A stretch of 64,000 bases of DNA, taken from the IMG/VR virus record IMGVR_UViG_3300032116_012976, one strand, 5' to 3'. This document shows, in pieces, positions 36,479 through 49,077 of this stretch (the first letter of the stretch is position 1; the number at the start of each line of letters is the position of its first letter). Under the pieces are notes generated by a model, which saw only the letters and a list, made by a program, of their open reading frames with translations, was not told where the DNA came from and ran no database searches. Both the position numbers and the translations under genes were made by a program. The DNA is from a virus (taxonomy: Duplodnaviria; Heunggongvirae; Uroviricota; Caudoviricetes).

Positions 36479-36553
36479 TGGCCGGCCCTGAGAGGATCGA
36501 ACTCCCACCGCTTGTTTCGAAGACAAGCATGATATCCATTTCACCAAGGGCCG
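36479..36553 (-). tRNA. tRNA-Arg(TCG)
   Basis: Hand-folded cloverleaf: 7-bp acceptor (cggccct/agggccg on plus), T-arm, anticodon loop CTTCGAA, CCA encoded. Confidence 0.8.
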
Positions 36554-36558
36554 AGAAT

Positions 36559-36632
36559 TGGTGCTCCCAACTGGTAACGATCCAGTGTTTCTACATTACC
36601 AATGTAGTGTAATGCCTTTATACTATGAGAGC
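36559..36632 (-). tRNA. tRNA-Thr(GGT)
   Basis: Acceptor with one G:U, anticodon loop TTGGTAA, atypical T-loop ATCGTTA, CCA encoded. Confidence 0.7.
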
Positions 36633-36636
36633 TAAG

Positions 36637-36710
36637 TGGAGCAGGATACCAGAATCGAACTGGTGACTGGACCTTGGCAAGGTTCTATTTTACCCCTAAA
36701 CTAATCCTGC
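36637..36710 (-). tRNA. tRNA-Gly(GCC)
   Basis: Acceptor gcaggat/atcctgc, anticodon loop TTGCCAA, CCA encoded. Confidence 0.8.
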
Positions 36711-36723
36711 ATTCCGTTACTTA

Positions 36724-37200
36724 TTAGGCAGCTCGTAAACTCTTAAATCTATCTGCCGCGTATGATGCTGCAAATGCTTCTGGCTTCACAAACGGAATCA
36801 CATTGCATGTTCCTTTGATGTAGCCCACAGCTTGCGAGATCACACAACTTGAACCGTATTGTTCGTCTGGGTTGATGTCCAAGTGAACTTCAACTTGACG
36901 GCCTTCTAGTACGTCAGCCAGTTTCAAATACAGTTCTGAAACCTTGTACACTTCGGTCATCAAACGCATGGCAGGTTTGCCTGGTTTCACGTCCCACACA
37001 CGCTCGCGTTGAACTTCGCCAAACAGTTTGCAGCCGTTGTTGCCGTTGATGTGTACCACAATGGCCAACACATAGTCGGCATACCAGGTACCGTCAATTT
37101 TGATTCGTTCAGAGTCGCAGCCAAGGTAGATGCGAGTTTCGGGCGTTTGTTTCTGGATAAATTCTGCTACTGATGCTATATCGAGCTTTTTCATTTTCAA
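36724..37200 (-). CDS. YkuK/DUF458-like predicted RNase H-fold protein
   Basis: IYLGCDSERIKIDGTWYADYVLAIVVHINGNNGCKLF...EVHLDINPDEQYGS recalled as the ykuK-family pattern. From memory only. Confidence 0.45.
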   Translation of the reverse strand: MKMKKLDIASVAEFIQKQTPETRIYLGCDSERIKIDGTWYADYVLAIVVHINGNNGCKLFGEVQRERVWDVKPGKPAMRLMTEVYKVSELYLKLADVLEGRQVEVHLDINPDEQYGSSCVISQAVGYIKGTCNVIPFVKPEAFAASYAADRFKSLRAA

Positions 37201-37223
37201 CTTTCAAAAATATTTATTGATAG

Positions 37224-37300
37224 TGGTACCCCAGGAGGGATTCGAACCCTCAGAATTCTCCTTTTGAGAGAGACACGTATTCCAGTTCCGTCACCGGGGC
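37224..37300 (-). tRNA. tRNA with Leu anticodon CAA but class-I (short variable loop) architecture, 77 nt
   Basis: GCCCCGG TG ACGG AACTGGAAT ACGT G TCTCT CTCAAAA GGAGA ATTCT GAGGG TTCGAAT CCCTC CTGGGGT A CCA. Confidence 0.7.
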
Positions 37301-37306
37301 ATTTGC

Positions 37307-37341
37307 AAAAAAAAAAACAGTAGGACTGGCCTACTGTTTTT
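37307..37341 (-). terminator. rho-independent terminator (bidirectional shape)
   Basis: acagtagg-actgg-cctactgt hairpin flanked by A11 and T5. On the minus strand it is followed by a long T-run. Confidence 0.8.
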
Positions 37342-37371
37342 ATAACTTGTGTCAGACAATCTGATCATGCG

Positions 37372-37671
37372 TTATTCTGTATAATCTTCTACAGTAAATG
37401 ACACAGGAACAACACTAAAAGTTGAAAGTTGTGCAGTCATCCATTCAACAAAGTCTTCTGCATTTTTTTTGTTTTCCCATTTTCGAGTTACAGTTAAATG
37501 GGTGGGACCTAGTTCTGACGGGTCGAGACCTGCGGTACCAACCACAGTAAAGTCATCATGCCCACCGTCTCCAACAATTTGTAAATAATTACTCCAAGGG
37601 ATAATAGTTCTTGCTGTTTCTCGATCTTCTACAGACGCATACACCAACACAGTTTTAGCAACTATAGCCAT
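37372..37671 (-). CDS. hypothetical protein
   Basis: Start moved to MAIVAKTV, preceded by ggagat. Confidence 0.5.
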   Translation of the reverse strand: MAIVAKTVLVYASVEDRETARTIIPWSNYLQIVGDGGHDDFTVVGTAGLDPSELGPTHLTVTRKWENKKNAEDFVEWMTAQLSTFSVVPVSFTVEDYTE

Positions 37672-37690
37672 AATAATCTCCTTTTTGTAT

Positions 37691-38464
37691 TTATTGCTTT
37701 GCGGCAATCACGCTTAAATGCCAACCTAGCTGTTGATTGACAGCCTGGCGTTGTGCATCGCTCATGGCAGCAAACCATGGTTCCAACACATAATTTCCTT
37801 GTTTGTACTGCTCTACATTGTACATAAAACAGTAATCTTGCTTGATGCTTTTGATATCAAAGTGTACGTCCAGCAGTTTTTGTATTTCTCCTTGACTGTA
37901 AACTCTGGCATATGGGCAGTTGTCTTGCGCTTCAAACTGGTCCAGCCCAGACTGAATCATTGCCCATTTCCAACTGTTGCGAGCATACACTAGGAAACGA
38001 AACTCCCCATCAGATGCTAGACTTGCGTAAGCATTGCTGACCACTTGTTCTACATTGGGATAGTGATGCAATACACCACAAGCATACACCATATCAAATT
38101 GTCCTAGCCCTGCAACACGCTGACTGTCGCCTGCGTCCATGTGATAGAATTCAGCATCTAATCCCATAACAGTAAATCTCTGCTCACAAAGTTCTATGCT
38201 ACGACTGCTAAGATCAATCCCAACGTATTCAGCACCATGCCGTACAAATTGTTCAGCATCAGATCCAATGCCGCATCCTAGTTCTAGCACCCGCCGTCCC
38301 TTGCAGTTTTCAAAGTCGGCCAACTGCCACAAATGCGGCCCAACAAACCATCTACGACGATTGATGTTGTTCCAAAATTCTTCTGTGCCTTCTGGTGCCA
38401 ACCCATGCTTTATATTACAAGGTTGTTGATCCCAGTACTGTTCTATTTGAGTAATTGTAGCCAT
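37691..38464 (-). CDS. class I SAM-dependent methyltransferase
   Basis: Motif I VLELGCGIGSD. Post-I VGIDLS. Confidence 0.75.
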   Translation of the reverse strand: MATITQIEQYWDQQPCNIKHGLAPEGTEEFWNNINRRRWFVGPHLWQLADFENCKGRRVLELGCGIGSDAEQFVRHGAEYVGIDLSSRSIELCEQRFTVMGLDAEFYHMDAGDSQRVAGLGQFDMVYACGVLHHYPNVEQVVSNAYASLASDGEFRFLVYARNSWKWAMIQSGLDQFEAQDNCPYARVYSQGEIQKLLDVHFDIKSIKQDYCFMYNVEQYKQGNYVLEPWFAAMSDAQRQAVNQQLGWHLSVIAAKQ

Positions 38465-38502
38465 ACAGTGTATTTAAAAGTCTGTGCAAGCTACATTAAA
38501 TT

Positions 38503-38579
38503 TGGTGCCCCAGAGGAGACTCGAACTCCTAAAATTTGGCTTCTAAGACCAACACGTATACCAATTCCGTCACCGGGGC
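38503..38579 (-). tRNA. tRNA with Leu anticodon TAG but class-I architecture, 77 nt
   Basis: GCCCCGG TG ACGG AATTGGTAT ACGT G TTGGT CTTAGAA GCCAA ATTTT AGGAG TTCGAGT CTCCT CTGGGGC A CCA. Confidence 0.7.
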
Positions 38580-38590
38580 TTAAATACATC

Positions 38591-38794
38591 ATGCAAACCA
38601 AACAAGACTCCATCAAAAAAATAGAGCGTTTGCTTGCAATGGAAACATTGGGCAAAACGTTTGTGACCAAACAACAACAGTTGGCCTACGAGCGCGGATA
38701 TCTAACAGGCTTGCTGGCTGCTATGGCCTACAACGACAATTCAGTCGAGCATGTGGTGAATCAACGCATCAAACATCTTACACCTAAAATCTAA
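38591..38794 (+). CDS. possible 67-aa ORF on the opposite strand within the tRNA array
   Basis: MQTKQDSIKKIERLLAMETLGK... Internal Met of ORF 38333..38794, whose upstream part overlaps a tRNA. No obvious RBS. Confidence 0.3.
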   Translation: MQTKQDSIKKIERLLAMETLGKTFVTKQQQLAYERGYLTGLLAAMAYNDNSVEHVVNQRIKHLTPKI

Positions 38795-38795
38795 C

Positions 38796-38871
<76 letters not shown>

Positions 38872-38876
38872 ATGAA

Positions 38877-38951
38877 TGGTGGGTGATGAGAGGATCGAAC
38901 TCCCGACAAACTGCGTGTAAGGCAGCGACTCTACCGCTGAGCTAATCACCC
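38877..38951 (-). tRNA. tRNA-Val(TAC)
   Basis: Acceptor gggtgat/atcaccc, anticodon loop CTTACAC, CCA encoded. Confidence 0.8.
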
Positions 38952-38956
38952 GTATA

Positions 38957-39047
38957 TGGTGGAAGTGGTGAGATTCGAACTCACGGACCCCTTTCGGAGC
39001 CGGCAGTTTTCAAGACTGCTGCAATCAACCAACTCTGCCACACTTCC
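38957..39047 (-). tRNA. tRNA-Ser(TGA), class II
   Basis: 91 nt, acceptor ggaagtg/cacttcc, anticodon loop CTTGAAA, long variable arm, CCA encoded. Confidence 0.8.
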
Positions 39048-39241
39048 TAAAAAATTAAAAAAGATACTGCTTTGCGTTTAAAGGTACTGAACATCCTTTC
39101 GGGTAGCTCACATCCTTCCTGGCACATGGTTCGACTGTGACTAGCAGTCTGGAACTTAATCCCAGCGGCACCTGGATAACGTTAAGGTCCCTAGCAGTTG
39201 GGCCCATAGTCAATGAGTTTTTCACACATCTTTTCTAAACT
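39048..39241 (-). other. unassigned 194-nt spacer in the tRNA array (possible small RNA)
   Basis: No ORF. Contains the direct repeat ggtactgaacatcc / ggtagctcacatcc and a duplicated ctagcagt. The minus strand ends in a T-rich run before tRNA-Ser. Confidence 0.25.
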
Positions 39242-39317
39242 TGGAGTAGGTGACAGGACTCGAACCTGCATTATACGGATTTGCAATCCGGCGCCTAGCC
39301 ATTCGGCACACACCTAC
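39242..39317 (-). tRNA. tRNA-Cys(GCA)
   Basis: Anticodon loop TTGCAAA, discriminator U73 as expected for Cys, CCA encoded. Confidence 0.8.
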
Positions 39318-39323
39318 ATCTAT

Positions 39324-39400
39324 TGGTCGGAGTACGAGGGTTCGAACCTCGGACCTCCTGGTCCCAAACCAGGCGCACTACCAGGCTGTGCTATACTCCG
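39324..39400 (-). tRNA. tRNA-Pro(TGG)
   Basis: Acceptor cggagta/tactccg, anticodon loop TTTGGGA, CCA encoded. Confidence 0.8.
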
Positions 39401-39406
39401 TGTATT

Positions 39407-39625
39407 TTATTTTACTTTGGGTTCTTGACTTTTGTCAAGTTCATGGGGTTCAGCAAATCTTGTGCCGTGGCCCAGATTCCAACTGTCTGCTGTGAAAATT
39501 TTTACAGGCTTCCAGTAACGACTTATGATGTTGTTGACAGCAACAGCCGCCGCCACAATCACTACAAATCCTATTGCTGTCAAAATACTACCAGCTAAGA
39601 ATACAGCCGCTTGATCCATGTCCAT
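39407..39625 (-). CDS. small membrane protein (72 aa) inside the tRNA array
   Basis: One clear hydrophobic helix AAVFLAGSILTAIGFVVIVAAAVAV. Confidence 0.5.
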   Translation of the reverse strand: MDMDQAAVFLAGSILTAIGFVVIVAAAVAVNNIISRYWKPVKIFTADSWNLGHGTRFAEPHELDKSQEPKVK

Positions 39626-39638
39626 TGTTTGTTCCTTG

Positions 39639-39712
39639 TGGAGCAGGGTAGGGGAATCGAACCCCTCGCTTTAGCTTGGAAGGCTAAGGTATTACCACTA
39701 TACGAACCCTGC
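39639..39712 (-). tRNA. tRNA-Gly(TCC)
   Basis: Acceptor gcagggt/accctgc, anticodon loop CTTCCAA, CCA encoded. Confidence 0.8.
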
Positions 39713-39760
39713 GTTAAAATACTTATTATACAACACTCAGACACTGTTGTAAAGATCATT

Positions 39761-39835
39761 TGGTTGCCATGGACAGTTTCGAAATGTCGACCTATCGCTT
39801 ATCAAGCGATTGCTCTTCCTCTGAGCTACACGGCA
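39761..39835 (-). tRNA. tRNA-Ile(GAT)
   Basis: Anticodon stem atcgc/gcgat, loop TTGATAA, CCA encoded. Confidence 0.75.
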
Positions 39836-39841
39836 AAAACT

Positions 39842-39915
39842 TGGCACGGGTACTAGGGCTCGAACCTAGAATGACAGAGTCAAAGTCTGTAGTGTTACCA
39901 TTACACTATACCCGA
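39842..39915 (-). tRNA. tRNA-Gln(TTG)
   Basis: Anticodon loop CTTTGAC, unpaired U1-U72 and G73 (Gln-like identity features), CCA encoded. Confidence 0.75.
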
Positions 39916-39927
39916 ACAAAAACTATT

Positions 39928-40002
39928 TGGTGGATGTAAGTAGAGTCGAACTACCACTTGACTCCGTATGAAGGAGGCGCACTACCATTATGCTATACAT
40001 CC
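39928..40002 (-). tRNA. tRNA-Met or Ile2 (CAT)
   Basis: GGATGTA...CCTCC TTCATAC GGAGT... Full cloverleaf. Met versus lysidine-Ile cannot be decided by eye. Confidence 0.7.
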
Positions 40003-40006
40003 ATGT

Positions 40007-40098
40007 TGGTACCCCCACCGGGAGTCGAACCCAGATGAACCAATTATCTGTTGCTTACGGGATATAAATCCGCCGTTTTACCATTAAACTATAGGGGC
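40007..40098 (-). tRNA. 92-nt tRNA with a 22-nt variable region; best-fit anticodon TAT (identity undetermined)
   Basis: GCCCCTA TA GTTT AATGGTA AAAC G GCGGA TTTATAT CCCGT AAGCAACAGATAATTGGTTCAT CTGGG TTCGACT CCCGG TGGGGGT A CCA. The A31-C39 pair is a mismatch. Confidence 0.55.
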
Positions 40099-40103
40099 AT
40101 GTC

Positions 40104-40178
40104 TGGGGTGTCGTATGAGAATCGAACTCATGACAGCGGAATCACAACCCGCGGTTTTGCCACTAAACTAACGTCACC
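40104..40178 (-). tRNA. tRNA-His(GTG)
   Basis: Anticodon loop TTGTGAT, C73 and an encoded G-1 (His hallmarks), CCA encoded. Confidence 0.8.
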
Positions 40179-40267
40179 ATATAGGAACACACTCAGGCGT
40201 AGTAGTTCGTTAGCCCACTAAGATACACGGCTACCACCCGTGTCATTAGTTGAATGTGTTTTTATAT
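40179..40267 (-). ncRNA. clamp-stem element filling the His-Lys tRNA spacer (89 nt)
   Basis: Arms atataggaacacactc (40179..40194) and gaatgtgtttttatat (40252..40267) pair around a ~57-nt insert with an internal hairpin acacgg/ccgtgt. Confidence 0.5.
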
Positions 40268-40341
40268 GGTAGGGGCGCCGGGATTCGAACCCGAAATTGG
40301 CAGATTAAAAGTCTGCTGTGATACCGTTTCACCACACCCCC
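40267..40341 (-). tRNA. tRNA-Lys(TTT)
   Basis: Anticodon stem gcaga/tctgc, loop CTTTTAA, CCA encoded. Confidence 0.8.
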
Positions 40342-40402
40342 GGTATCTTGTCACTCTTGTCACTATTCATGACAGACTCTCCTTTTTAAAATAAGTATTT
40401 GA

Positions 40403-41527
40403 ATGAACAAATATTGTCCAAAACCATTTGTTAGTATTCATATGTATACTGATAAAGATCTCAATCCAACTGTTAGGCCTTGTTGCAATTACAAACCTAT
40501 CAAGCAGTACGCAACGATTAATGATTATTTGCAATCATCTGAACTAGCGTCTCTTCAGCAACATTTGCTTACAAAAGAATCATTGCCAGATGGATGCAAG
40601 GCATGCAAAGTAGACGAAGATAATAACTTGCCTAGTATCCGAAACAAGTATATTAAAGTGTTTGAGCATGAAACCAAAACTAAAATTGTTGACTTGGAAA
40701 TTTTCCCTGGCAACGCATGTAATCTCAGTTGCTTGTCGTGCAATCCTTCTCATAGTACCAAATCAGGTCAGGAATATGCCAAACTTGGATGGATTAAACA
40801 ATCAATAGTGATCAATCACGAAGATCATGCACTTGAAGTTATTAAACAGTTGCCAGACCTTAAATCAATAGGTTTTATTGGCGGCGAATTTTTTGTAACC
40901 AAACACAATATTGAATTGCTCGATGCGGTTATTGAAAAAAATCTTAAAACACGAATTATTACCAATGCCACTCAACTAACCAAAAAACATCTTGAGCGGT
41001 TACAAAAAATATCTGACCTTGATGTGATGGTTAGTGTAGACGGTACTGGGCCAACATTTGAATTTTTACGCTATCCGGCACAATGGTCAGTTGTGCAATC
41101 AAACATTGTTGCACTACAACAGGCATTGCCCGGAGCAAAGATACATTTGTCGGCAGTGTTGCAATTTTTAAATTTGCAAAATATCATTGAACTGTTTGAA
41201 TACGCCAATGTCCGTCGACTGCCATTTAATGTGATCCCTTTATCTTATCCTGTTTGGCTACAGTCAGAAGTGCTTACCACTCTCGAACGTCAGCAGTTGA
41301 TTGCAGTTATACAAAAACAACTAACAGTTGCAAAACTTACCAAAACACAAAAACAGTTAATGACTGATACATGTAGTATGCTAGAAACAATACAGCACTC
41401 ACCTGCTCAACGAGAACAGTTTGTGTCTCGAACAAGCCAGCTGATTCGACTGCGCAACATCACACAACACACAATCAACTCAGTGTTTGGTGTGCTAGAA
41501 AATTTAGCGCAAGAAGTTATACAATAG
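40403..41527 (+). CDS. radical SAM enzyme (type B paralog) embedded in the tRNA array
   Basis: YCPKPFVSI...RPCC, CNLSCLSCN, IGGEFFV. Confidence 0.8.
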   Translation: MNKYCPKPFVSIHMYTDKDLNPTVRPCCNYKPIKQYATINDYLQSSELASLQQHLLTKESLPDGCKACKVDEDNNLPSIRNKYIKVFEHETKTKIVDLEIFPGNACNLSCLSCNPSHSTKSGQEYAKLGWIKQSIVINHEDHALEVIKQLPDLKSIGFIGGEFFVTKHNIELLDAVIEKNLKTRIITNATQLTKKHLERLQKISDLDVMVSVDGTGPTFEFLRYPAQWSVVQSNIVALQQALPGAKIHLSAVLQFLNLQNIIELFEYANVRRLPFNVIPLSYPVWLQSEVLTTLERQQLIAVIQKQLTVAKLTKTQKQLMTDTCSMLETIQHSPAQREQFVSRTSQLIRLRNITQHTINSVFGVLENLAQEVIQ

Positions 41528-41567
41528 CCAGGGACCTAACTCGTCAAGGGAGAGTATGGCTATGTGT

Positions 41568-41645
41568 TGGTACCACCTGAGAGATTCGAACTCCCCGCCC
41601 CTGCGTTCGTAGCACAGTGCTCTAATCCAAATGAGCTAAGGTGGT
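41568..41645 (-). tRNA. tRNA-Arg(ACG)
   Basis: Acceptor accacct/aggtggt, anticodon loop CTACGAA, CCA encoded. Confidence 0.75.
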
Positions 41646-42993: not shown

Positions 42994-44010
42994 GGACTGA
43001 GAATACATCCTAACCCAGTAACACCTCGGACATTATTACAAACCTTGCGAGTCTGCTTTCTTCCGATTTCCACTGCAACCATATTGCTATGTATCACAGT
43101 CTGTTACCAGTATCGCCGTTTTTAAAGACAGGCAGTAGTCTTGTCATCACATGCTACTCTACACCATCTATCCCGTTGACCTTTAGAGCCATTCACTGTC
43201 GCTAAACAGTTACGAAACTTCCAGTATAAACAGATTTCACCTTGCGAGTTACGTCTGACTGTATTGCCTTGCGGCTACAGCATTAGATACTTTTCACACA
43301 TGACCGAGTCAGTCTTTGCTTTTATGTTAGATAGTGGTTTTGAAGCCACAGCCTATTCCTTAACAGGGAATTGCTCTACGATGAGCTATATCAACCTACT
43401 GCGATGTGCTGACTCAGTTGCTTCATACTCTTTTGGAATACAAAATACAACACACCACGTTCCTTTTGTCTTGCGAACTACTCAGACGTCTTTTGCGATC
43501 AGTGTCGGGTCTCGGCTTTCGCGTACCTCCACCAACCACTCAAACTGCATACGAGCCCTTGGGTGCAACCCCTCGGACCGATACGCTACCCTTTCTCATA
43601 CCAATTAACTGGGCTGGTTTTGTATAGAAGTCAGCACCACCTGTTACTTTTCTGCAACTCCGGTTACCCTTGCGGGCCGGTAAGTTACAGCTCTTTCCTA
43701 TACTCCCAGCGTCATTGTTACAACCACCGGTCTTATCAGTGATCGGATCCTCACGGACCTGAGCAGGCTTGTTTACATGAACCATTGCTGGCGGACTTAT
43801 GTAGGCATACATCCTTTGGCTGGGTCACCCCAGTTATTCTTCGTACAGCTGGGCGAACCATACTGCACAGGACAATAAACTGCCCTATGTATCTATTGTA
43901 AGACAAACGTCTTTTGTTGTCAAACAGTTTTGGATAAATTTGTTGTTTATCTATCCAAAATAGTCTGTAACAGTTTTCTGCAGTCGTGTTACAGTGGGCA
44001 AATAAGTACC
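42994..44010 (-). ncRNA. candidate large structured ncRNA (~1 kb), class unknown (GOLLD/ROOL-like context)
   Basis: No credible ORF in an otherwise gene-dense window. Five CGCAAG (GCAA tetraloop) and two GTGA-capped hairpins on the minus strand, plus many local stems. Flanked by tRNAs. Confidence 0.4.
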
Positions 44011-44014
44011 CCAC

Positions 44015-44986
44015 ATGATCACTGAAATCTTAACCTATCACCACAGTCTCGACTGGAACATTGAACAATTCGTTGATAGCACATGTCTAGCAAACATTGT
44101 TCAGCCACACTGGCCAATGGTAACTTCTTCCAAAGGAGGATTGATACCAACAAATAAACCCAGCCGAGACTTTTTTGAGCTCAATAAAAAACGAGGACGT
44201 CCTACTGAACTTAGGAACAGTACCATTGACGCCTTGGTCAGTCTTGTGGCAACAAAATTGCATCTCAACGGATTTGTTACGAATGTGGTAGCAGAATGCA
44301 GTGGAAGCATGCATGCCTTGTACACTGCATCCATGGTGAGCTTGCAACACCAATTACCAGTGATTGTTTTTTGTGCTGATAATTTAGTTGATGACGAACT
44401 TCACATGTGGCGATTTGCCAGTATGGGTGCATTGGATCAATCCTCAGGAAGAGCATTTGACTCAACCAGTACTGGATTTCGAATGGGTAGAGGCATGGCT
44501 GCAATGTTGATAAAACATCCAAGTGTAAAATTCAACATGAGTGCATTTGCCACAATCAGCAATTATATCTTTCGTACCAACCCCACACTCATAGCCAATC
44601 CAGGTGATGCGCACCAATTGGCCAGAGATATTTCTGGCATCAATTTTGACACCATTGATTTTTGGAATGCACATGCAACAGGCACTCCAGTGGGAGATCA
44701 ATTTGAGTACAATGTTTTTAATTCTTTAGTTCACAAAGACATACCTATTGTCAGCTACAAAAGCCGCATAGGGCACTGTATCTCAGCCAGCGGCGCCATT
44801 GAAATGTGCATGAGTTTTGACGATTACCGTGCAAAAACCCTAAGACCCAATGTGTTAGCTGGTGATCTCATAGTCAAAGATTCAAGGATCATCGTAGATG
44901 CTGTGCCGTTTCCGGGCAAACGCATACTCAAGGCCAATTTTGGATTTGGCGGCAAAAACAGTTTTTGCCAAATTGACATTGAATAG
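44015..44986 (+). CDS. beta-ketoacyl-ACP synthase I/II-like (short, 323 aa)
   Basis: Cys-His-His triad context: AECSGSMHALY, NAHATGTPVGD, KSRIGHCISASGAIE. C-terminal FGFGGKNS. N-terminal region is shorter than FabB/FabF. No obvious RBS. Confidence 0.75.
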   Translation: MITEILTYHHSLDWNIEQFVDSTCLANIVQPHWPMVTSSKGGLIPTNKPSRDFFELNKKRGRPTELRNSTIDALVSLVATKLHLNGFVTNVVAECSGSMHALYTASMVSLQHQLPVIVFCADNLVDDELHMWRFASMGALDQSSGRAFDSTSTGFRMGRGMAAMLIKHPSVKFNMSAFATISNYIFRTNPTLIANPGDAHQLARDISGINFDTIDFWNAHATGTPVGDQFEYNVFNSLVHKDIPIVSYKSRIGHCISASGAIEMCMSFDDYRAKTLRPNVLAGDLIVKDSRIIVDAVPFPGKRILKANFGFGGKNSFCQIDIE

Positions 44987-44990
44987 ATTC

Positions 44991-45140
44991 TATAGTCAAG
45001 CACCGAGAGATGCTCAATTTATGCGTCCTCCGCTAAGAGTGCAATAGCCGATAGCAGTTATATTAGGATCCGTTCCCGGCCGGTTGGACCCGAATAGCGT
45101 AAGCGTCCTTACACGATACCTTTATCGGTGCTTGACTATA
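44991..45140. ncRNA. 150-nt element closed by a perfect 16-bp clamp, directly after the KAS stop codon
   Basis: tatagtcaagcaccga (44991..45006) pairs with tcggtgcttgactata (45125..45140). The interior has gc-GTAA-gc, ccggccgg and gcg/cgc stems. Confidence 0.45.
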
Positions 45141-45173
45141 AAAACTAAAAGTTCGGATTTGAAAATCAAATCC
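45141..45173 (-). terminator. possible terminator of the upstream minus-strand RNA
   Basis: ggatttga-aaa-tcaaatcc hairpin (45155..45173) followed, on the minus strand, by T-rich gaacTTTTagTTTTTat. Confidence 0.45.
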
Positions 45174-45590
45174 TCCCACTGCTAACTACTGCTTCCCAAT
45201 TTATCGTCCATCGGCACCCGTGGTAGGGCTTGCGATGCTCATCGGCCCTGAGTTCTGGCTCAGGTGATCCTTGGGATAGGACTGCTGGGCCTTGTCCTGC
45301 CCAGCATCAGGAAAATTAGTTGCTCTGCATCCCCCGGCGGTAATTGTAGTGCATCATCTCTTGGGTTGCCCCGCAATTCTCACACACCTTCCACCCGCTT
45401 CCCGACAGGGACCGCTATCGTGTTGCTAACGGCCTTTCGGTAAGAAGACTACCACCCTTGAGAGTCACCTCACTTCTTATCCTGCGGGTCACAGTATCCG
45501 CTAACCAAGCGGAACGTCGGGGAGAAGCCACGGTTGCAGGACCTAGTGCTCTTGCGAGGAAGTGTCCAGGCGATGTGGCTTCAAACTTGA
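45174..45590 (-). ncRNA. candidate structured ncRNA (~420 nt), class unknown
   Basis: ORF-free. Hairpins cctgag/ctcagg, tgctggg/cccagca, agggc/gccct, tccgc/gcgga. Two more CGCAAG on the minus strand (plus CTTGCG at 45229 and 45551). Confidence 0.35.
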
Positions 45591-45679
45591 GGCATCATGT
45601 GGGATTCGAACCCACGCAAGAAAACCTTGATGATCATTCAAGGTTGAAGCAAACCACACTCCGTTACATCCTATGACGC
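45591..45679 (-). ncRNA. tRNA-like element A (89 nt; canonical acceptor and T arm, non-canonical core, no CCA)
   Basis: GCGTCAT...GTGGG TTCGAAT CCCAC ATGATGC C. The core is an 8-bp hairpin with loop ATGATCA. No D-arm could be folded. Confidence 0.4.
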
Positions 45680-45687
45680 CATAAACT

Positions 45688-45778
45688 TGGTGGACAACAA
45701 TGGGAATCTAACCCACTTCTTCCTCGTATGCTATTACGAAGTTTCATACCAGCCTCAGGTAATTGACACATCATGTCC
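45688..45778 (-). ncRNA. tRNA-like element B (91 nt; degenerate)
   Basis: T-arm GTGGG TTAGATT CCCAT, 5-bp acceptor, CCA encoded. No canonical anticodon arm (7-bp stem CTTCGTA/TACGAGG with a 6-nt loop). Confidence 0.35.
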
Positions 45779-45785
45779 ATAAACT

Positions 45786-45860
45786 TGGCGGTCCCAGGGG
45801 GTAACGATCCCCCTCCTCAGCAGTGACAGTGCTGTGTGCGTCCATGAACACCTTGAGACC
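45786..45860 (-). tRNA. tRNA-Asp(GTC)
   Basis: GGTCTCA AG GTGT TCATGGAC GCAC A CAGCA CTGTCAC TGCTG AGGA GGGGG ATCGTTA CCCCC TGGGACC G CCA. Confidence 0.75.
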
Positions 45861-46063
45861 AAATTAGGATAAGCTACTGGGTTCCACGCCAGCCCTTAAT
45901 TGAGCAGTTACTCTGTCCATCTCATTTATTCAAAGTCTGTGTGCAGTGAGATTCTGCCTATCAGAGTCTGTAAGGGTAGTCTCCATCCTTACGCTTACGG
46001 TCTTCTGCCACCGGATCTCTATCGCTAATCAAACGCTACTTTAACGAAAGTAGTAACGGGATT

Positions 46064-46138
46064 TGGTAGAGCGTAGGGGAATCGAACCCCTCTTACAGGC
46101 GTGAAAGGCTTGTGTCCTAACCGATAGACGAACGCTCC
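46064..46138 (-). tRNA. tRNA-Glu(TTC)
   Basis: G1:U72, T-arm agggg/cccct, anticodon loop CTTTCAC, CCA encoded. Confidence 0.8.
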
Positions 46139-46147
46139 ATAGTTCAC

Positions 46148-46376
46148 TATATGAAAACACATTAGGGAAGTTCTTGACACGCATCACCAACTTGCATCAA
46201 GACCTCATTACAGGCCCAGTAGTTCCGCCGCCTTCCTGGAGTTTGGTGTAGCCTTATCCCTCACGCTCGATGGTGTCTCGCGCTACTCTTAGGCCCTCCT
46301 GCTTCATGGGTATCCGGCTCGAATCAGCCTTTGTTCACCCCTAACGGACTAGGTAACCCTAATGTGTTTACATATA
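46148..46376 (-). ncRNA. clamp-stem element 9 nt 5' of tRNA-Glu (229 nt)
   Basis: Arms tatatgaaaacacattaggg (46148..46167) and ccctaatgtgtttacatata (46357..46376), 19 of 20 paired, enclosing ~190 nt without an ORF. Confidence 0.5.
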
Positions 46377-46473
46377 GTGCCCAGAACTTAATCTGGGGCA
46401 CTATACAAAATTAAATTTTTAACGAACTTCAAAGTAGTTTCGATCAACTGCCTTTGTTTTCTAACTAGTCTCT

Positions 46474-46502
46474 AGTATAGCATCTCCTGCTTTACTGGTC
46501 AA
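46474..46502 (-). promoter_or_regulatory. sigma70-type promoter TTGACC-N17-TATACT (TGn) reading into the tRNA/ncRNA array
   Basis: Minus strand: ttgaccagtaaagcaggagatgcTATACT. Confidence 0.6.
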
Positions 46503-46571
46503 CTTGTTTTGTAAATGCCCCGCCTTGTTGCAGGGTCTTTACAAACTTCGCTGTTTTTCTAACTTGTGTCT

Positions 46572-46600
46572 AGTATAGCACCAATCCAATTATTGGTCTA
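46572..46600 (-). promoter_or_regulatory. tandem second copy of the promoter (TAGACC-N17-TATACT)
   Basis: Minus strand: tagaccaataattggattggtgcTATACT. About 98 nt upstream of the first copy, with shared flank ttttctaact.gt.tctagtatagca. Confidence 0.45.
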
Positions 46601-46607
46601 CTGCCAT

Positions 46608-46637
46608 AAAAAAACCCGCCTACTTGGCGGGTTTTTT
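46608..46637 (-). terminator. rho-independent terminator after the porin gene (bidirectional shape)
   Basis: acccgcc-tactt-ggcgggt flanked by an A-run and a T-run. Confidence 0.85.
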
Positions 46638-46656
46638 GGTTTGTACTACTTCTGTT

Positions 46657-47547
46657 TTAGAACTGTACGACCAACCCGCCTGCTACTTGTTTGACATCAG
46701 TGGCTGCTGAGGTTCCCTCAACTGTACGATACAAAACTTGTGCATAGGTCTTTTTGCTGAAAGCATACTCAGCACCTACGTTGTAACTCTTGATGCCATT
46801 TTCAATGCGACCATAGCTGGCCTTCACTGTGACTGGTCCACCAAGTTTGTGTGCCACGCCGACCAACTGAGCACGGTTGGTGTTGGCAGCAACGCCTTTG
46901 TTGTCGCTTGCGCTGGCAAACACAGTGGTTGCACCAAATTTAGCACGAGCAGCCAACACGTCACTGGTTTCTGCGCCAGCTTCGTAACGAGCATAAGTCA
47001 ACACAGCAGGTCCAACTGCGGCAATCACGGATGCGGCATAAGGATCAGCGGCAGTGCCAACAGCACCAGTGCTACGATCAAAGTTAGCAGAGACATTGCC
47101 AAAGTTCACAGAAGTGAAAGCGGCATTGCTCAAACGCAAACCACGCAGGTTATGCACGTCGGCAGCTGAGCTACCAATCAATGTGCCAAATGGATCATTG
47201 TCGCTGATGGCCAAGAAGTGAGTGTGAACATTGCGACCAAGATCAACGCTACCCATTTTGTGAGCAATACCCACGGTGCTTTGGCGATCGCCAAGTCTAG
47301 TGTCAGTACCAGTGTCTGGGCTGTTGGCTTGGATGCCGGTCTCGTATGTGGCACGAGCTGTTAATCCGCCACCTAAGTTTTCAGTAGCACGAATGCCAAA
47401 GTGACTCAAGTCATTGGCCATGCCTTGCACGGTGGAAGCACCAGTTTTGGTGTTGTCAAGGTAAGTGCCAACACGACCATAGATACCAACTTGTGCGCTT
47501 GCAACACCAGCAACTGCCAGGGTCAACGCAATTAGAACTTTCTTCAT
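46657..47547 (-). CDS. outer-membrane porin (Gram-negative trimeric porin family)
   Basis: Signal peptide MKKVLIALTLAVAGVASAQV, alternating beta-strand pattern, C-terminal ...GGLVVQF with terminal Phe. RBS aaggaaa. Confidence 0.8.
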   Translation of the reverse strand: MKKVLIALTLAVAGVASAQVGIYGRVGTYLDNTKTGASTVQGMANDLSHFGIRATENLGGGLTARATYETGIQANSPDTGTDTRLGDRQSTVGIAHKMGSVDLGRNVHTHFLAISDNDPFGTLIGSSAADVHNLRGLRLSNAAFTSVNFGNVSANFDRSTGAVGTAADPYAASVIAAVGPAVLTYARYEAGAETSDVLAARAKFGATTVFASASDNKGVAANTNRAQLVGVAHKLGGPVTVKASYGRIENGIKSYNVGAEYAFSKKTYAQVLYRTVEGTSAATDVKQVAGGLVVQF

Positions 47548-47595
47548 AAGTAATTTTTCCTTGTTAATGAAATGATCAAATGTCGATCATAGAGT

Positions 47596-47625
47596 ATTAT
47601 ATAGCACAAACACTGAGAATGTCAA
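47596..47625 (-). promoter_or_regulatory. sigma70-type promoter TTGACA-N18-TATAAT for the porin gene
   Basis: Minus strand: ttgacattctcagtgtttgtgctaTATAAT. Confidence 0.55.
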
Positions 47626-47651
47626 AGAAAATGGCTACTTTCGCAGCCATT
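47622..47651 (-). terminator. terminator at the end of the tmRNA coding piece
   Basis: aatggct-gcgaaagt-agccatt hairpin followed, on the minus strand, by ttttcttt. Confidence 0.65.
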
Positions 47652-47813
47652 TTGGTGGTTTCTGTTACGAGGTATTTCCTACCCTAGACGACCTTAAGCG
47701 GCCATCAAGAATTTTTCATCATTTGCAGATAAAAGTTTTGCTTGATTTACGGTCATCGCCTACCGTGCTGTCCACTCTGTTACTCTTTGCCCTGTCGAAT
47801 CTAGGTCAGGCCC
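47630..47813 (-). ncRNA. ssrA: tmRNA coding piece (two-piece / permuted ssrA)
   Basis: Starts GGGCCTGACCTAGATTCGAC (compare the standard GGGGCUGAUUCUGGAUUCGAC). Contains the tag frame. The 3' boundary is approximate. Confidence 0.8.
47694..47726 (-). other. ssrA: tmRNA tag reading frame ANDEKFLMAA*
   Basis: GCA AAT GAT GAA AAA TTC TTG ATG GCC GCT TAA. The ANDE...AA pattern is typical of proteobacterial tags. Confidence 0.8.
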
Positions 47814-48028
47814 ATCATAAAGAAACTTAATCTACGCTTAATGTTGTTAACAACAAGCATAATATTGGAAAAACAATTAATAAAAATTTTGCTAAATTTT
47901 CCATATTACCATAACTCACAGTTTTTTATTTTCTCTTCGTCCAATGTGGTATCACGTGTAAAATAAAATACACCAAACACTAACCAAAATAACAAAAATA
48001 AAACATAACCTATCATTAAACTTCCTTA

Positions 48029-48093
48029 TGGTGGACCTGGGGGGATTCGCACCCCCGTCCAGAACACTTTTCTCTCGGCTTCATACAGCAATA
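48029..48093 (-). ncRNA. ssrA: tmRNA acceptor piece (T-arm + 3' acceptor strand + ACCA)
   Basis: ...GGAC GGGGG TGCGAAT CCCCC CAGGTCC A CCA. Pairs with GGGCCTG of the coding piece, giving G3:U70. The 5' boundary is inferred from the promoter. Confidence 0.75.
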
Positions 48094-48099
48094 ACTCGC

Positions 48100-48128
48100 A
48101 GTATATATTTATTCTTTGGGCTTGTCAA
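48100..48128 (-). promoter_or_regulatory. sigma70-type promoter TTGACA-N17-TATACT for the tmRNA precursor
   Basis: Minus strand: ttgacaagcccaaagaataaataTATACT. Confidence 0.6.
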
Positions 48129-48278
48129 CTGCTTTGGAGATGATGTCATACACTTGTGCGTATGCATCAGTAATTTTGTCTAGTTGTTGTTCCGACACCA
48201 AGTCTGTGTCCTCCAGACTGACCAAGTCTCGGGCTAGATTTTCTTGTAGTTTTTTTATGGGATTGAGCACATACCTAT

Positions 48279-48812
48279 TTATTCATCCCCGCTATCTACT
48301 GGGATCCAGCCCAACTTAAAAAAGTCTTCCTGGATTTCTTCTGTGACATGTCCTTCGGGTACATATCTTTTAACACCGTCAGCATCACCATTGCCCAGTC
48401 CATCGCCTATGCCCGAACAGTACCAATCAATATAGTCACCTTGTTCACGCATGTCGGCAACAATACCCCCGGCATAGCGCCACGAACAACTGTAGGTCTC
48501 TCCCTTTAGCAAAGGCCATACTTCGTTGCGTTGCCAGTCTTGATTGCACAAGGCTGCGTAGATGTTTTGAGCGTAGGTATCGCTGGCCTTGGCTTTGTCG
48601 CAAACCCACTTGGTGCTACGCAAATCATATTCAAGATTGTTTTCTCGCCACCGTTCGTCGGCTTCGCGTTGAGCCTGATGTTCGTTGATCATGCGTTCAA
48701 GATCTAAAGCTCGTTGAACATCTTCGTCAGTGGCAGGATCTCCTCCTTCCGCAATGACATCTTCAATTCTGCATTGACTGTGAAAGGTTCCGCGAGTAGG
48801 ACTTTTGTTCAT
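48279..48812 (-). CDS. hypothetical protein
   Basis: Start moved to MNKSPTRG, because the longer ORF-track version (to 48890) runs through tRNA-Leu(TAA). Confidence 0.55.
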   Translation of the reverse strand: MNKSPTRGTFHSQCRIEDVIAEGGDPATDEDVQRALDLERMINEHQAQREADERWRENNLEYDLRSTKWVCDKAKASDTYAQNIYAALCNQDWQRNEVWPLLKGETYSCSWRYAGGIVADMREQGDYIDWYCSGIGDGLGNGDADGVKRYVPEGHVTEEIQEDFFKLGWIPVDSGDE

Positions 48813-48818
48813 AATGTT

Positions 48819-48904
48819 TGGTACCAGAGACGGGACTCGAACCCGTATGCCCTTGCAAGCGGCAGATTTTAAGTCTGCTGTGTATACCATTCCACCACTC
48901 TGGC
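48819..48904 (-). tRNA. tRNA-Leu(TAA), canonical class II
   Basis: 86 nt: GCCAGAG TG GTGG AATGGTATA...GCAGA CTTAAAA TCTGC + 15-nt variable arm + ACGGG TTCGAGT CCCGT CTCTGGT A CCA. Confidence 0.8.
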
Positions 48905-48922
48905 TTTGCGTTATTTAATACA

Positions 48923-48997
48923 TGGTCCGGCGTAGAGGAATCGAACCTCTATAATGACTTTAGAAGAATCATGTCCTATCCGTTGAACGAACGCCAG
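48923..48997 (-). tRNA. tRNA-Arg(TCT)
   Basis: CTGGCGT TC GTTC AACGGATA GGAC A TGATT CTTCTAA AGTCA TTAT AGAGG TTCGATT CCTCT ACGCCGG A CCA. Confidence 0.8.
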
Positions 48998-49002
48998 ATG
49001 TT

Positions 49003-49077
49003 TGGTGGGCCAACTTGGAATTGAACCAAGACTCGACCGATTATGAGTCGGTTGCTTTACCATTAAGCTATTGGCCC
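49003..49077 (-). tRNA. tRNA-Met or Ile2 (CAT)
   Basis: GGGCCAA TA GCTT AATGGTA AAGC A ACCGA CTCATAA TCGGT CGAGT CTTGG TTCAATT CCAAG TTGGCCC A CCA. Confidence 0.75.

Follow-up and report, generated by a model that had tools for sequence, protein, structure and literature searches.

The 64,000-nucleotide (nt) stretch of DNA analysed here, referred to as the window, is the caudoviricete virus record IMGVR_UViG_3300032116_012976 of IMG/VR. Between positions 36479 and 49077 its minus strand carries 30 tRNA genes and one gene for a permuted transfer-messenger RNA (tmRNA), and among them lie a GOLLD RNA, two structured RNAs that match no Rfam family (RNA 1 and RNA 2), a conserved small open reading frame (ORF) and a gene for a DUF458/YkuK-like putative nuclease (Table 1). 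A first-pass annotation had folded the 30 tRNAs by hand and assigned them to all 20 amino acids, with an initiator tRNA and a tmRNA. When the whole window is scanned with ARAGORN and Rfam, ARAGORN returns exactly 30 tRNAs and one tmRNA, within the same outer limits and entirely on the minus strand. That annotation overlooked the GOLLD RNA, RNA 1, RNA 2 and the small ORF, as well as the five arms of the tRNA-Ile(UAU), which is 92 nt long. The island as such is a known kind of system; the five-arm tRNA, the two RNAs and the array-linked nuclease are apparently undescribed.

Table 1. Features of the tRNA island and its surroundings, listed in the direction of minus-strand transcription (positions are those of the window).
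Feature	Position	Strand	Basis or remark
Sigma70-like promoter, 11/12 with TG	49086-49114	-	-10 hexamer ends 8 nt before the 5' end of the tRNA at 49077
tRNA(CAU), probable tRNA-Ile2 (lysidine type)	49003-49077	-	ARAGORN; Rfam 75.5 bits, top tRNA score of the window
tRNA-Arg(UCU)	48923-48997	-	ARAGORN, Rfam
tRNA-Leu(UAA), class II	48819-48904	-	ARAGORN, Rfam
Sigma70-like promoter, 11/12, before tmRNA	48100-48128	-	Site scan
Permuted tmRNA gene	47603-48132	-	ARAGORN; RF04321 tmRNA_permuted 115 bits; RF01850 beta_tmRNA 111.5 bits
tmRNA, acceptor piece	48060-48029	-	ARAGORN
tmRNA, 5' tRNA-like domain	47813-47787	-	ARAGORN
tmRNA, tag ORF	47726-47694	-	ARAGORN; ANDEKFLMAA, then stop
Terminator-like hairpin and U-run after tmRNA	47624-47653	-	
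Porin promoter	47625-47596	-	
Gram-negative porin (Porin_4), own promoter and terminator	46657-47547	-	PF13609, E 2.8e-25
Porin terminator	46637-46609	-	
Tandem promoter-like sites upstream of tRNA-Glu	46474-46600	-	46600-46572, 9/12; 46502-46474, 10/12
tRNA-Glu(UUC)	46064-46138	-	ARAGORN, Rfam
tRNA-Asp(GUC), swapped T-loop A54/U58	45786-45860	-	ARAGORN; Rfam 36.2 bits
Structured RNA 1, about 196 nt, unclassified	45321-45516	-	Conservation and RNAalifold
N-terminally short FabF-like ketosynthase	44015-44986	+	PF02801, PF00109; FabF models far below cut-off
Sigma70-like promoter, 11/12, upstream of GOLLD and initiator tRNA	43895-43923	-	Site scan
GOLLD RNA	42994-43458	-	RF02032, 204.1 bits (gathering 150), E 3.5e-56, model positions 1-416
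Degenerate tRNA-Asn(GUU)-like element in GOLLD linker	43325-43395	-	RF00005 50.6 bits; rejected by ARAGORN
Initiator tRNA-fMet, C1×A72	42819-42893	-	ARAGORN, Rfam
Conserved sigma70-like promoter, 10/12, for small ORF, RNA 2 and Trp cluster	42754-42782	-	Site scan, relatives
Conserved small ORF, 35 amino acids (MMKTQYCSLLPKFAQTPVWSHAYGRMNSIPGGRGS)	42639-42746	-	Conservation in relatives
Terminator-like hairpin and U-run after small ORF	42583-42612	-	Kept in relatives
Structured RNA 2, unclassified	42403-42576	-	Conservation and RNAalifold
tRNA-Trp(CCA)	42327-42400	-	ARAGORN, Rfam
tRNA-Ala(UGC), G3:U70	42246-42320	-	ARAGORN, Rfam
tRNA-Tyr(GUA), 93 nt, atypical, weakest of the 30	42148-42240	-	ARAGORN only
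tRNA-Asn(GUU)	42032-42107	-	ARAGORN, Rfam
tRNA-Ser(GCU)	41937-42026	-	ARAGORN, Rfam
tRNA-Thr(UGU)	41857-41930	-	ARAGORN, Rfam
tRNA-Arg(ACG)	41568-41645	-	ARAGORN, Rfam
Twitch-domain radical SAM protein	40403-41527	+	PF04055; NF033640 198.7 bits (cut-off 170)
tRNA-Lys(UUU)	40267-40341	-	ARAGORN, Rfam
tRNA-His(GUG), encoded G-1 (40178) and C73	40104-40178	-	ARAGORN, Rfam
Five-arm tRNA-Ile(UAU), 92 nt	40007-40098	-	ARAGORN; Rfam 53.7 bits
tRNA-Met(CAU), elongator type	39928-40002	-	ARAGORN, Rfam
tRNA-Gln(UUG), U1×U72, G73	39842-39915	-	ARAGORN, Rfam
tRNA-Ile(GAU)	39761-39835	-	ARAGORN, Rfam
Sigma70-like promoter, 11/12, upstream of tRNA-Gly(UCC)	39725-39753	-	Site scan
tRNA-Gly(UCC)	39639-39712	-	ARAGORN, Rfam
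ORF of 72 amino acids, one predicted transmembrane segment	39407-39625	-	Hydropathy scan
Sigma70-like promoter, 11/12, 8 nt upstream of tRNA-Pro	39409-39438	-	Site scan
tRNA-Pro(UGG)	39324-39400	-	ARAGORN, Rfam
tRNA-Cys(GCA)	39242-39317	-	ARAGORN, Rfam
tRNA-Ser(UGA)	38957-39047	-	ARAGORN, Rfam
tRNA-Val(UAC)	38877-38951	-	ARAGORN, Rfam
tRNA-Phe(GAA)	38796-38871	-	ARAGORN, Rfam
tRNA-Leu(UAG), 77 nt, short variable loop	38503-38579	-	ARAGORN, Rfam
Class I SAM-dependent methyltransferase	37691-38464	-	Pfam Methyltransf_12/25/11; phrog_22502
Terminator-like hairpin and U-run upstream of tRNA-Leu(CAA)	37308-37341	-	
tRNA-Leu(CAA), 77 nt, short variable loop	37224-37300	-	ARAGORN, Rfam
DUF458/YkuK-like RNase H-fold putative nuclease, 156 amino acids from ATG	36724-37194	-	PF04308
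tRNA-Gly(GCC)	36637-36710	-	ARAGORN, Rfam
tRNA-Thr(GGU), swapped T-loop A54/U58	36559-36632	-	ARAGORN, Rfam
tRNA-Arg(UCG)	36479-36553	-	ARAGORN, Rfam

Automated scanners do not reject any substantial fraction of the hand-folded genes. ARAGORN keeps all 30 and Rfam supports 29: 28 reach the gathering score of RF00005 in the whole-window scan, and tRNA-Asp scores above the gathering score of 29 bits in a second, narrower scan of positions 35500-50000. The sequence ends in an encoded CCA in 30 of 30 genes, as had been claimed; across the related loci the encoded CCA is kept in about 95% of the tRNAs, of which 1662 are distinct sequences. The identity marks read by eye are also present. The tRNA at 42893-42819 joins a CAU anticodon to the C1×A72 mismatch of an initiator, its anticodon stem CCAGG/CCUGG placing two rather than three consecutive G-C pairs beside the loop; tRNA-His has a genomic G at -1 (the complement of base 40178) and C73; tRNA-Ala has G3:U70; and tRNA-Gln has U1/U72 unpaired and G73. 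The three CAU tRNAs counted earlier are the initiator, an elongator tRNA-Met and a tRNA at 49077-49003 that is probably tRNA-Ile2. This last has C4-G69/C5-G68, its antisense strand matches the Rfam family Plastid-ycf2, the antisense of plastid trnI-CAU, and its anticodon arm resembles that of E. coli ileX, in keeping with the determinants for TilS.

Description of the set as near-complete was correct in that all 20 amino acids are represented but too modest, since the 30 anticodons can, by standard wobble rules, read all 61 sense codons. There is one U34 tRNA per four-codon box, G34 tRNAs serve the NNY boxes, and isoleucine has three decoders: GAU, the probable lysidine-type CAU and the five-arm UAU. 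Spacers inside the tRNA sub-clusters measure 4-6 nt. Chance cannot account for thirty tRNAs within 12.6 kb.

Between 35500 and 50000, 11 sigma70-like sites scoring at least 10/12 lie on the minus strand, compared with 2.1 ± 1.45 in simulations, and one lies on the plus strand. Some, among them those at 49086, 39409 and 39725, end 8-12 nt before the 5' end of a tRNA. The tandem promoters at 46474 and 46572 that had been said to feed the array do exist (10/12 and 9/12), but they are neither its sole feed nor its strongest sites; about a dozen promoter-like sites are spread along the array. The many promoters, together with internal terminators at 47653, 46637, 42612 and 37341, thus indicate several short transcription units, an arrangement shared with the tRNA region of phage T5, which likewise consists of short units with many promoters and terminators.

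The most unusual member of the array is the tRNA-Ile(UAU). ARAGORN draws it with an unstructured variable loop of 22 nt, and alignment with homologs reveals a second hairpin there. The first anticodon stem-loop (ASL-1), with anticodon UAU, spans 40073-40057, and the second (ASL-2), with the loop CAGAUAA, spans 40055-40039. Thus the molecule is not a canonical class I tRNA-Ile(UAU), of about 75 nt and with a variable loop of 4-5 nt; it has 92 nt, and an additional 17-nt hairpin precedes the 4-5 nt linker. In an alignment of 75 sequences the order is a 7-bp acceptor stem, D arm and N26, the canonical anticodon arm ASL-1, a linker of 0-5 nt, ASL-2, 4-5 nt, and the T arm. Pairing reaches 100% in the acceptor stem and 99.5% in the T-stem, A73 is present in 74 of the 75 sequences, and the ASL-1 loop reads YUUAUAN. 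The linker between ASL-2 and the T-stem is exactly 4 nt in 50 members and 5 nt in the other 25.

The stem of ASL-2 is paired in 90.8% of cells, as against 59% in shuffles. Its three inner pairs covary: pairing there reaches 97-100%, and double substitutions are frequent. The 7-nt loop is conserved as CAGAUWA, and the same loop is found in 12 sequences gathered without use of the search pattern; of the 75 sequences, 67 have C-G as their third stem pair. The minimum-free-energy structure given by RNAfold is the five-arm cloverleaf for the members from related locus L032 and from Stenotrophomonas phage DLP_6 (z -2.45 and -4.13) but not for the window's own tRNA, where the ASL-2 stem is weak. Scored against position weight matrices of 33 isoacceptor anticodon arms from the same loci, ASL-2 fits Ile(GAU) best (0.91 versus -6.9 for the next), and Ile(GAU) still ranks second of 33 when positions 33-36 are left out. 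The loop differs at position 33 alone from CUGAUAA, the anticodon loop of E. coli tRNA-Ile1, and the C-G third pair matches C29-G41, a determinant for isoleucyl-tRNA synthetase (IleRS). Because ASL-2 covaries and has an Ile(GAU)-like loop, the molecule is read here as a tRNA with a tandemly duplicated anticodon arm.

The family is widespread. A pattern scan of IMG/VR returned at least 120 stretches; in the 80 loci examined, 69 matches fall within ARAGORN tRNAs, of which 68 are tRNA-Ile(UAU) of 90-96 nt, with 65 distinct sequences. All 13 tRNAs(UAU) in loci related by their DUF458 gene have 91-95 nt, phage DLP_6 has a tRNA-Ile-TAT of 92 nt, and 42 Vibrio phage records contain a five-arm tRNA(UAU), among them those of Thalassa and Pontus, which infect V. 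harveyi, and of phage henriette 12B8. No short UAU tRNA was found in any phage locus scanned, 81 of 81 tRNAs(UAU) being 90-96 nt long. The five-arm form is absent from T5, which reads AUA with a tRNA-Ile2(CAU) of ordinary length.

Bacterial genomes also contain it: 37 of 80 pattern matches there are real tRNAs, of 88-96 nt. Some lie inside tRNA arrays, in metagenome-assembled genomes (MAGs) of Acidobacteriota, Pyrinomonadaceae and Haliscomenobacter, and others are solitary, in cultured Xanthomonas, Pseudoxanthomonas, Microbulbifer, Marinobacter, Ruegeria and Allomesorhizobium. Chromosomal solitary copies occur in Xanthomonas euroxanthea (locus L242), Microbulbifer guangxiensis (L240), Marinobacter nauticus (L286), loci L222 and L226, and others. 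The near identity of solitary copies across distant taxa suggests horizontal mobility. In Xanthomonas the solitary gene follows coaBC-radC, close to an HNH endonuclease gene. No conserved protein partner was found beside the solitary copies of Xanthomonas and Microbulbifer; the neighbours are coaBC, radC, an HNH endonuclease, MipA and uncharacterised genes.

Known tRNAs with related features differ from this one. A class II tRNA of the Leu, Ser or Tyr type can be rejected from the conserved 7-nt CAGAUWA loop, the linker of 4-5 rather than 1-2 nt, and a D-arm that is mostly of class I. The allo-tRNA(UAU) (Mukai 2017, PMC5389517) shares the UAU anticodon and a long extra arm; allo-tRNAs are defined by 8/4 or 9/3 branches with G73 or U73, have long D-stems and were judged probably non-translational, whereas the present family has a 7/5 branch and nearly invariant A73, so that this assignment also fails. 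The nematode nev-tRNA-Ile(UAU) (PMC3333845), with the same anticodon and a long extra arm, is eukaryotic and charged with leucine. These two are the closest oddities so far published and, like the five-arm family, are often found on mobile or irregular tRNA clusters. The Mycoplasma mobile tRNA-Ile2(UAU) (PMC3575796) shares A73, the 7/5 acceptor/T branch and a UAU anticodon for AUA that TilS cannot modify; it is of ordinary size, depends on an adapted IleRS (Arg865) and lacks the anticodon-arm-like extra hairpin of the present family, which is spread over many lineages of phages and bacteria. No description of the five-arm architecture was found in the open full-text literature searched.

In other phages, class I tRNAs for Lys, Asn and Thr reach 84-90 nt, and their variable region forms a hairpin of 3-4 bp with a GNRA-type tetraloop; examples are found in RcXuper (L003:355-442 and 2850-2937), BUDD (L002:3218-3307 and 2626-2711) and DLP_6 (L001:3442-3527). 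A decoy anticodon arm was considered for these tRNAs as well and rejected, since the GNRA-capped hairpins are not copies of their own anticodon loops.

The tmRNA of the island is of the two-piece type, with the acceptor/T-arm piece upstream of the 5' tRNA-like half and the tag ANDEKFLMAA. It fits the betaproteobacterial two-piece model RF01850 far better than the alphaproteobacterial model (111.5 versus 57.4 bits), and it has its own promoter (48128-48100) and its own terminator (47653-47624). No SmpB domain was found among the ORFs scanned in the window, and the host SmpB presumably serves the phage tmRNA. Two-piece tmRNAs are already known from phages, mostly aquatic ones (PMC9004378); the methylophage Melnitz described there is likewise an aquatic phage with a permuted ssrA behind an early-type promoter. 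The tmRNA of the window differs from that type in its best fit to the betaproteobacterial model, and the Rfam scans detected no glutamine riboswitch. An unannotated two-piece tmRNA is also present in the 156-kb GenBank record of Synechococcus phage BUCT-ZZ01 (L004, 4068-4486, tag ANDETFSMALAA), which has at least ten unannotated tRNAs beside its DUF458 gene.

The GOLLD RNA, a full-length covariance-model match above the gathering score, sits just upstream of the initiator tRNA and also occurs in relative L013 and in Xanthomonas phage BUDD. GOLLD is known near phage tRNA islands and with tRNAs in its linker, and its assembly into a 14-mer nanocage is known from cryo-electron microscopy of env-38 GOLLD alone (PMC12286853). 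The window copy shares with the GOLLDs of phage and Mycobacterium tRNA arrays the full-length model, the island location and the tRNA-like linker insert, but it is short, 465 nt compared with more than 800 nt for many GOLLDs. Its insert, a tRNA-Asn-like element, has no CCA and no G18G19, and combines a bulged acceptor stem with an 8-nt T-loop on a 4-bp stem, so that the canonical D- and T-loops are missing.

RNA 1 begins 270 nt downstream of tRNA-Asp and recurs at L013:147-311 and L090:5614-5817, the latter a distant relative in which identity is 91% over 204 nt; in all it is present in at least 12 related loci, usually directly after tRNA-Tyr. RNAalifold predicts 40 pairs, 19 of them compensatory, from 12 sequences, and 36 pairs with 16 compensatory from 40 diverse sequences. 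Two blocks, ACGGTCCCTGTCGGGAAGCGGGTGGA and TACAATTACCGCCGGGGGATGCAGAGCA, are invariant. An invariant 24-nt core motif has at least 117 exact matches in IMG/VR. Among 80 loci with this core, 79 contain tRNAs (median 14), every one of the 1184 tRNAs lies on the strand of RNA 1, and the start of RNA 1 is in most cases the 3' end of a tRNA-Ser(GCU) or tRNA-Tyr. RNA 2, of about 170-205 nt, lies directly upstream of tRNA-Trp, is conserved in 24 related loci and folds with 35 pairs, of which 13 are compensatory. An Rfam cmscan of 35500-50000 gave no family at E ≤ 0.1 for either RNA, and the one match to RNA 1, to H19 at E 2.8, is spurious. The 418-nt gap 42401-42818 does not hold up as a single non-coding RNA: its 5' half comprises a promoter, a 35-amino-acid ORF and a terminator, and the 3' 174 nt alone behave as a structured RNA. 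The nearest precedents for RNA 1 and RNA 2 are the unexplained stable RNAs of the coliphage T5 tRNA region and those of the T4 tRNA region. With these two, large RNAs tied to tRNA islands would come to include more than GOLLD and ROOL, which sharpens the question of their function.

The small ORF between the initiator tRNA and RNA 2 is preceded by a conserved promoter and followed by a conserved terminator. It is in frame in 11 of 11 relatives compared, with 35-45 amino acids, and most of them contain the motif W-[ST]-H-A-x-G-R-x-N-S-I-P-G. Since the window has several radical S-adenosylmethionine (SAM) genes (1686-3017, 3027-4286 and 40403-41527), its product might be a peptide precursor.

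The DUF458 protein exceeds the PF04308 cut-off, with an RNase H fold and the conserved DEDD acidic residues; the family has been grouped with RNase H1 (PMC3985635). An exact-protein look-up from the TTG start gave no match. Its association with tRNAs is recurrent. Of the 80 related loci, nearly all that are long enough to show it have the gene inside a same-strand tRNA array, and the order Leu(CAA)-DUF458-Gly-Thr-Arg recurs. It is also inside the arrays of unrelated phages, namely DLP_6, BUDD (28 tRNAs and a GOLLD), RcXuper, where a peptidyl-tRNA hydrolase is a neighbour, and BUCT-ZZ01, where the two-piece tmRNA is; in phage Astolliot it is about 1.2 kb from a tRNA cluster. In Rhizobium phage RHph_I1_18 (L005, 97-4900) DUF458 heads a cluster encoding a CCA-adding enzyme, a Thg1-like tRNA-His guanylyltransferase, RNA ligase A and polynucleotide kinase, which is a tRNA maturation and repair module. 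Neither placement, in phage tRNA arrays or beside tRNA repair genes, was found in the literature searched, and the one paper that mentions DUF458, tRNA and phage assigns the domain no function. It is a reasonable inference that DUF458 helps to process or repair array transcripts, and the recurrent linkage thus suggests a testable role for a domain family without an assigned function.

The source of this DNA is a very abundant, uncultured lineage of freshwater phages, probably jumbo phages. The DUF458 relatives in IMG/VR comprise 252 loci, all on viral contigs; the 80 examined are 65-93% identical, on contigs of up to 343 kb. More than 6000 homologs are present in the protein collection, with near-identical genes on contigs of 355-366 kb. 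Measured by the usual definition of a jumbo phage, more than 200 kb with virion genes, the related contigs of 343-366 kb are large enough and the 64-kb window itself has no structural genes. The porin is encoded in identical form on contigs of freshwater-lake metagenomes, in blocks that also include contigs longer than 200 kb, and the MoxR-like ATPase nearby is closest to those of the jumbo phages PA5oct, Phosso and Atu_ph07. Megablast found no GenBank phage similar at the DNA level. The beta-type tmRNA and the Porin_4 gene give a weak hint of a betaproteobacterial host.

These relatives favor the view, already taken in the first-pass annotation, of a translation-support tRNA/tmRNA module of a very large phage that would act during infection. 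The island is best regarded as a stable-RNA island of a jumbo phage that keeps late phage translation going independently of the host tRNA pool, a reading to which we assign a probability of about 0.8. Genes, structures, conservation and arrangement are observed; from them we infer expression, processing, charging and benefit as follows. The minus strand would be transcribed as several units from about eleven host-type (sigma70-like) promoters with a few intrinsic terminators between the units. Given the 4-6 nt spacing and encoded CCA, host RNase P and 3' trimming enzymes would release the mature tRNAs, and the embedded DUF458 putative nuclease may assist. The products would be a self-sufficient decoding set, the two-piece tmRNA, GOLLD, RNA 1 and RNA 2, with the tmRNA rescuing stalled ribosomes and so limiting stalling. 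The host pool may match the A/U-leaning codons of the phage poorly, or it may be depleted, whether by decay following host shut-off or by tRNA-targeting defence nucleases; tRNA-cleaving defence systems, and phage tRNA loci as counter-defence, are documented (PMC13096335).

Jumbo phages such as Xanthomonas phage XacN1 (as cited in PMC7824862) share large tRNA complements, and the record of coliphage T5 has about 24 tRNAs with promoters, terminators, "stable RNAs with unknown functions" and HNH endonucleases. Like the window, tRNA regions of this type contain dozens of same-strand tRNAs including an initiator, small ORFs, many promoters and extra stable RNAs. The present island adds to these the two-piece tmRNA, GOLLD, DUF458 and the five-arm tRNA(UAU). 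Phage tRNA islands being known, its value lies in the components that travel with the tRNAs in a complete set from an abundant uncultured lineage.

The completeness of the set, initiator included, points beyond codon compensation and is consistent with either host independence or counter-defence. That the island is primarily a device for counter-defence or host independence, its tRNAs, some with altered loops or arms, replacing host tRNAs that are degraded after shut-off or cleaved by nucleases acting on the anticodon, variable loop or acceptor end, is the alternative that we rate highest, though as less likely than not. The recurrence of variant tRNAs fits such a role, among them swapped A54/U58 T-loops, short-arm Leu, five-arm Ile(UAU) and, in other phages, long-variable-arm Lys, Asn and Thr, as does the documented existence of tRNA-cleaving defences and anti-defence tRNA loci (PMC13096335, PMC12851939). 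It overlaps the best explanation, however, rather than excluding it.

Pure compensation for codon usage, with tRNAs supplying codons that are frequent in the phage and rare in a GC-richer host, is unlikely to be the whole explanation. In a rough greedy call of the window ORFs the G+C content at third codon positions is 0.43, AUA and AGA stand at 14 and 10.5 per 1000 codons, and UUA and CUA are substantial; many of the tRNAs are U34 species reading NNA, and four boxes, those of Ala, Pro, Thr and Ser(UCN), favour NNA. But every amino acid and box is covered, codons not ending in A/U included (tRNA-Gly(GCC), tRNA-Thr(GGU) and tRNA-Arg(ACG)), and codon bias explains neither the initiator nor the tmRNA. 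The codon data fit the translation-support view only partly.

It is improbable that the array is largely selfish or decaying cargo, shuffled by recombination or homing endonucleases and with many non-functional members. Gene order and content do differ strongly among relatives, an HNH endonuclease gene lies at 25106-26470, the GOLLD-embedded tRNA is degenerating and tRNA-Tyr is atypical. Against this, 29 of 30 tRNAs lie well above the Rfam threshold, all keep CCA and the isotype identity marks, the stems covary across relatives, and the retention of CCA among the related tRNAs is nearly as high. A mis-binned cellular or plasmid array unit, like those of Mycobacterium and Acidobacteriota, is very improbable: the absence of virion genes from the 64-kb window, the tRNA arrays with GOLLD reported for bacterial genomes (Morgado 2020, as cited in PMC12286853) and the five-arm genes in arrays of bacterial MAGs are outweighed by 252 of 252 relatives on IMG/VR viral contigs, many of 100-340 kb, by PHROG matches and the jumbo-phage-like ATPase, and by DUF458 within the arrays of the cultured phages DLP_6, BUDD and RcXuper, the last with a portal gene 1 kb away.

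A number of observations count against the stable-RNA-island reading. tRNA-Tyr fails RF00005, its sole Rfam match being a weak one to tRNA-Sec (29.8 bits). The GOLLD-embedded tRNA is degenerate in the window copy, and canonical in the closest relative, L013. GUG, CUG and GGC/GGU are favoured over the NNA codons of their own boxes. ORF scans of the 64-kb window gave no capsid, tail or terminase gene, and a search with the porin for a host returned only metagenomic proteins of the phage lineage, 85-96% identical and without taxonomy. The processing role proposed for DUF458 is drawn from gene neighbourhood, and the Vibrio phage D484 group, alone among those compared, has no tRNA within 5 kb of its DUF458 homolog.

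The duplicated anticodon arm invites a more specific proposal. UAU tRNAs are poorly charged by E. coli IleRS, and M. mobile needed both an adapted IleRS and an adapted ribosome (PMC3575796). Our preferred hypothesis is that ASL-2 would keep the isoleucine identity and ASL-1 would decode AUA. Arm 1, with UAU and a normal U33, would decode AUA on the ribosome. Arm 2 may be a disabled copy of the tRNA-Ile(GAU) anticodon arm, with the CAGAUWA loop, the C29-G41-like pair (67 of 75 members) and an A at position 33, where arm 1 has U. The host IleRS would find the G-A-U identity nucleotides in this second arm, perhaps through an alternative stacking that places it under the D-stem. The tRNA could then be charged with isoleucine in any host, with need of neither lysidine synthase nor an adapted synthetase. 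Three points speak against a decoy arm. Two-thirds of members have U at position "37" of ASL-2; the site of the variable arm faces away from class I synthetases in the normal L-shape, so that alternative stacking is required; and in the other long phage tRNAs the extra hairpin ends in a GNRA-type loop and does not copy the anticodon loop. It is thus a tentative proposal that the five-arm tRNA is a portable, TilS-independent AUA decoder, accompanied by two array-embedded RNA families absent from Rfam and by DUF458 as a possible dedicated array processor.

If arm 2 does carry the synthetase identity, it would represent a new solution to the problem of distinguishing AUA from AUG in decoding, and a natural precedent for splitting tRNA identity from decoding that could be useful in genetic-code engineering. 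Questions about the five-arm tRNA, the RNAs and DUF458 can be tested directly, since such parts are found in cultured phages (Thalassa and other phages of V. harveyi, DLP_6, BUDD and RcXuper).

The protein-coding genes in and around the array had been identified correctly in six cases: the YkuK-like PF04308 protein, the class I SAM methyltransferase, the radical SAM protein, the ketosynthase, Porin_4 and RpoZ. The placement of rpoZ just upstream of the array must be revised, since 35017-35286 is downstream by direction of transcription. The methyltransferase at 37691-38464 reaches the cut-off of no NCBIfam family. DUF458 excepted, the porin, ketosynthase, desaturase and radical SAM genes look like auxiliary metabolic genes and not translation factors, and no further translation factors appear among the genes scanned in the flanks. 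The minus-strand flanks (28844-36376 and 49536-52210) encode rubrerythrin, two TauD dioxygenases, two or three fatty-acid desaturases, an Asp/Asn beta-hydroxylase, a hexapeptide transferase, a metallophosphatase, an SPFH/Band 7 protein and an AAA_33 kinase; asparagine synthase, a carbamoyltransferase and several radical SAM enzymes are also found in the flanks of the array. The plus-strand genes at 13-12407 include two or more for radical SAM enzymes and one for a Nol-like carbamoyltransferase (9547-11037); this block may serve modification or biosynthesis. The large HNH endonuclease at 25106-26470 on the minus strand (phrog_1314, E 5e-107) may be a homing enzyme and, as such, bear on how segments of the array move.

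Several of the tRNAs have minor peculiarities. Aligned with Tyr tRNAs of related phages, tRNA-Tyr keeps the acceptor stem, the CUGUAAA anticodon loop, the T-loop and CCA, and is odd in the D and variable regions. In the T-loops of 36559-36632 and 45786-45860, A54/U58 replace T54/A58, giving a swapped reverse-Hoogsteen pair. The swap recurs in the phage group (L013-L172), in 21 of 54 Ile-GAU, 10 of 46 Thr-GGU and 9 of 34 Asp tRNAs, nearly always as a double change. Bacterial tRNA-Leu is normally long-armed; here tRNA-Leu(CAA) and tRNA-Leu(UAG) have a variable loop of 5 nt, and the relatives, too, often have short Leu tRNAs, with median lengths of 76-79 nt for the anticodons CAA, GAG and AAG. 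Finally, the 194-nt minus-strand spacer between tRNA-Ser(UGA) and tRNA-Cys (39048-39241) is 71-84% identical in 17 related loci.

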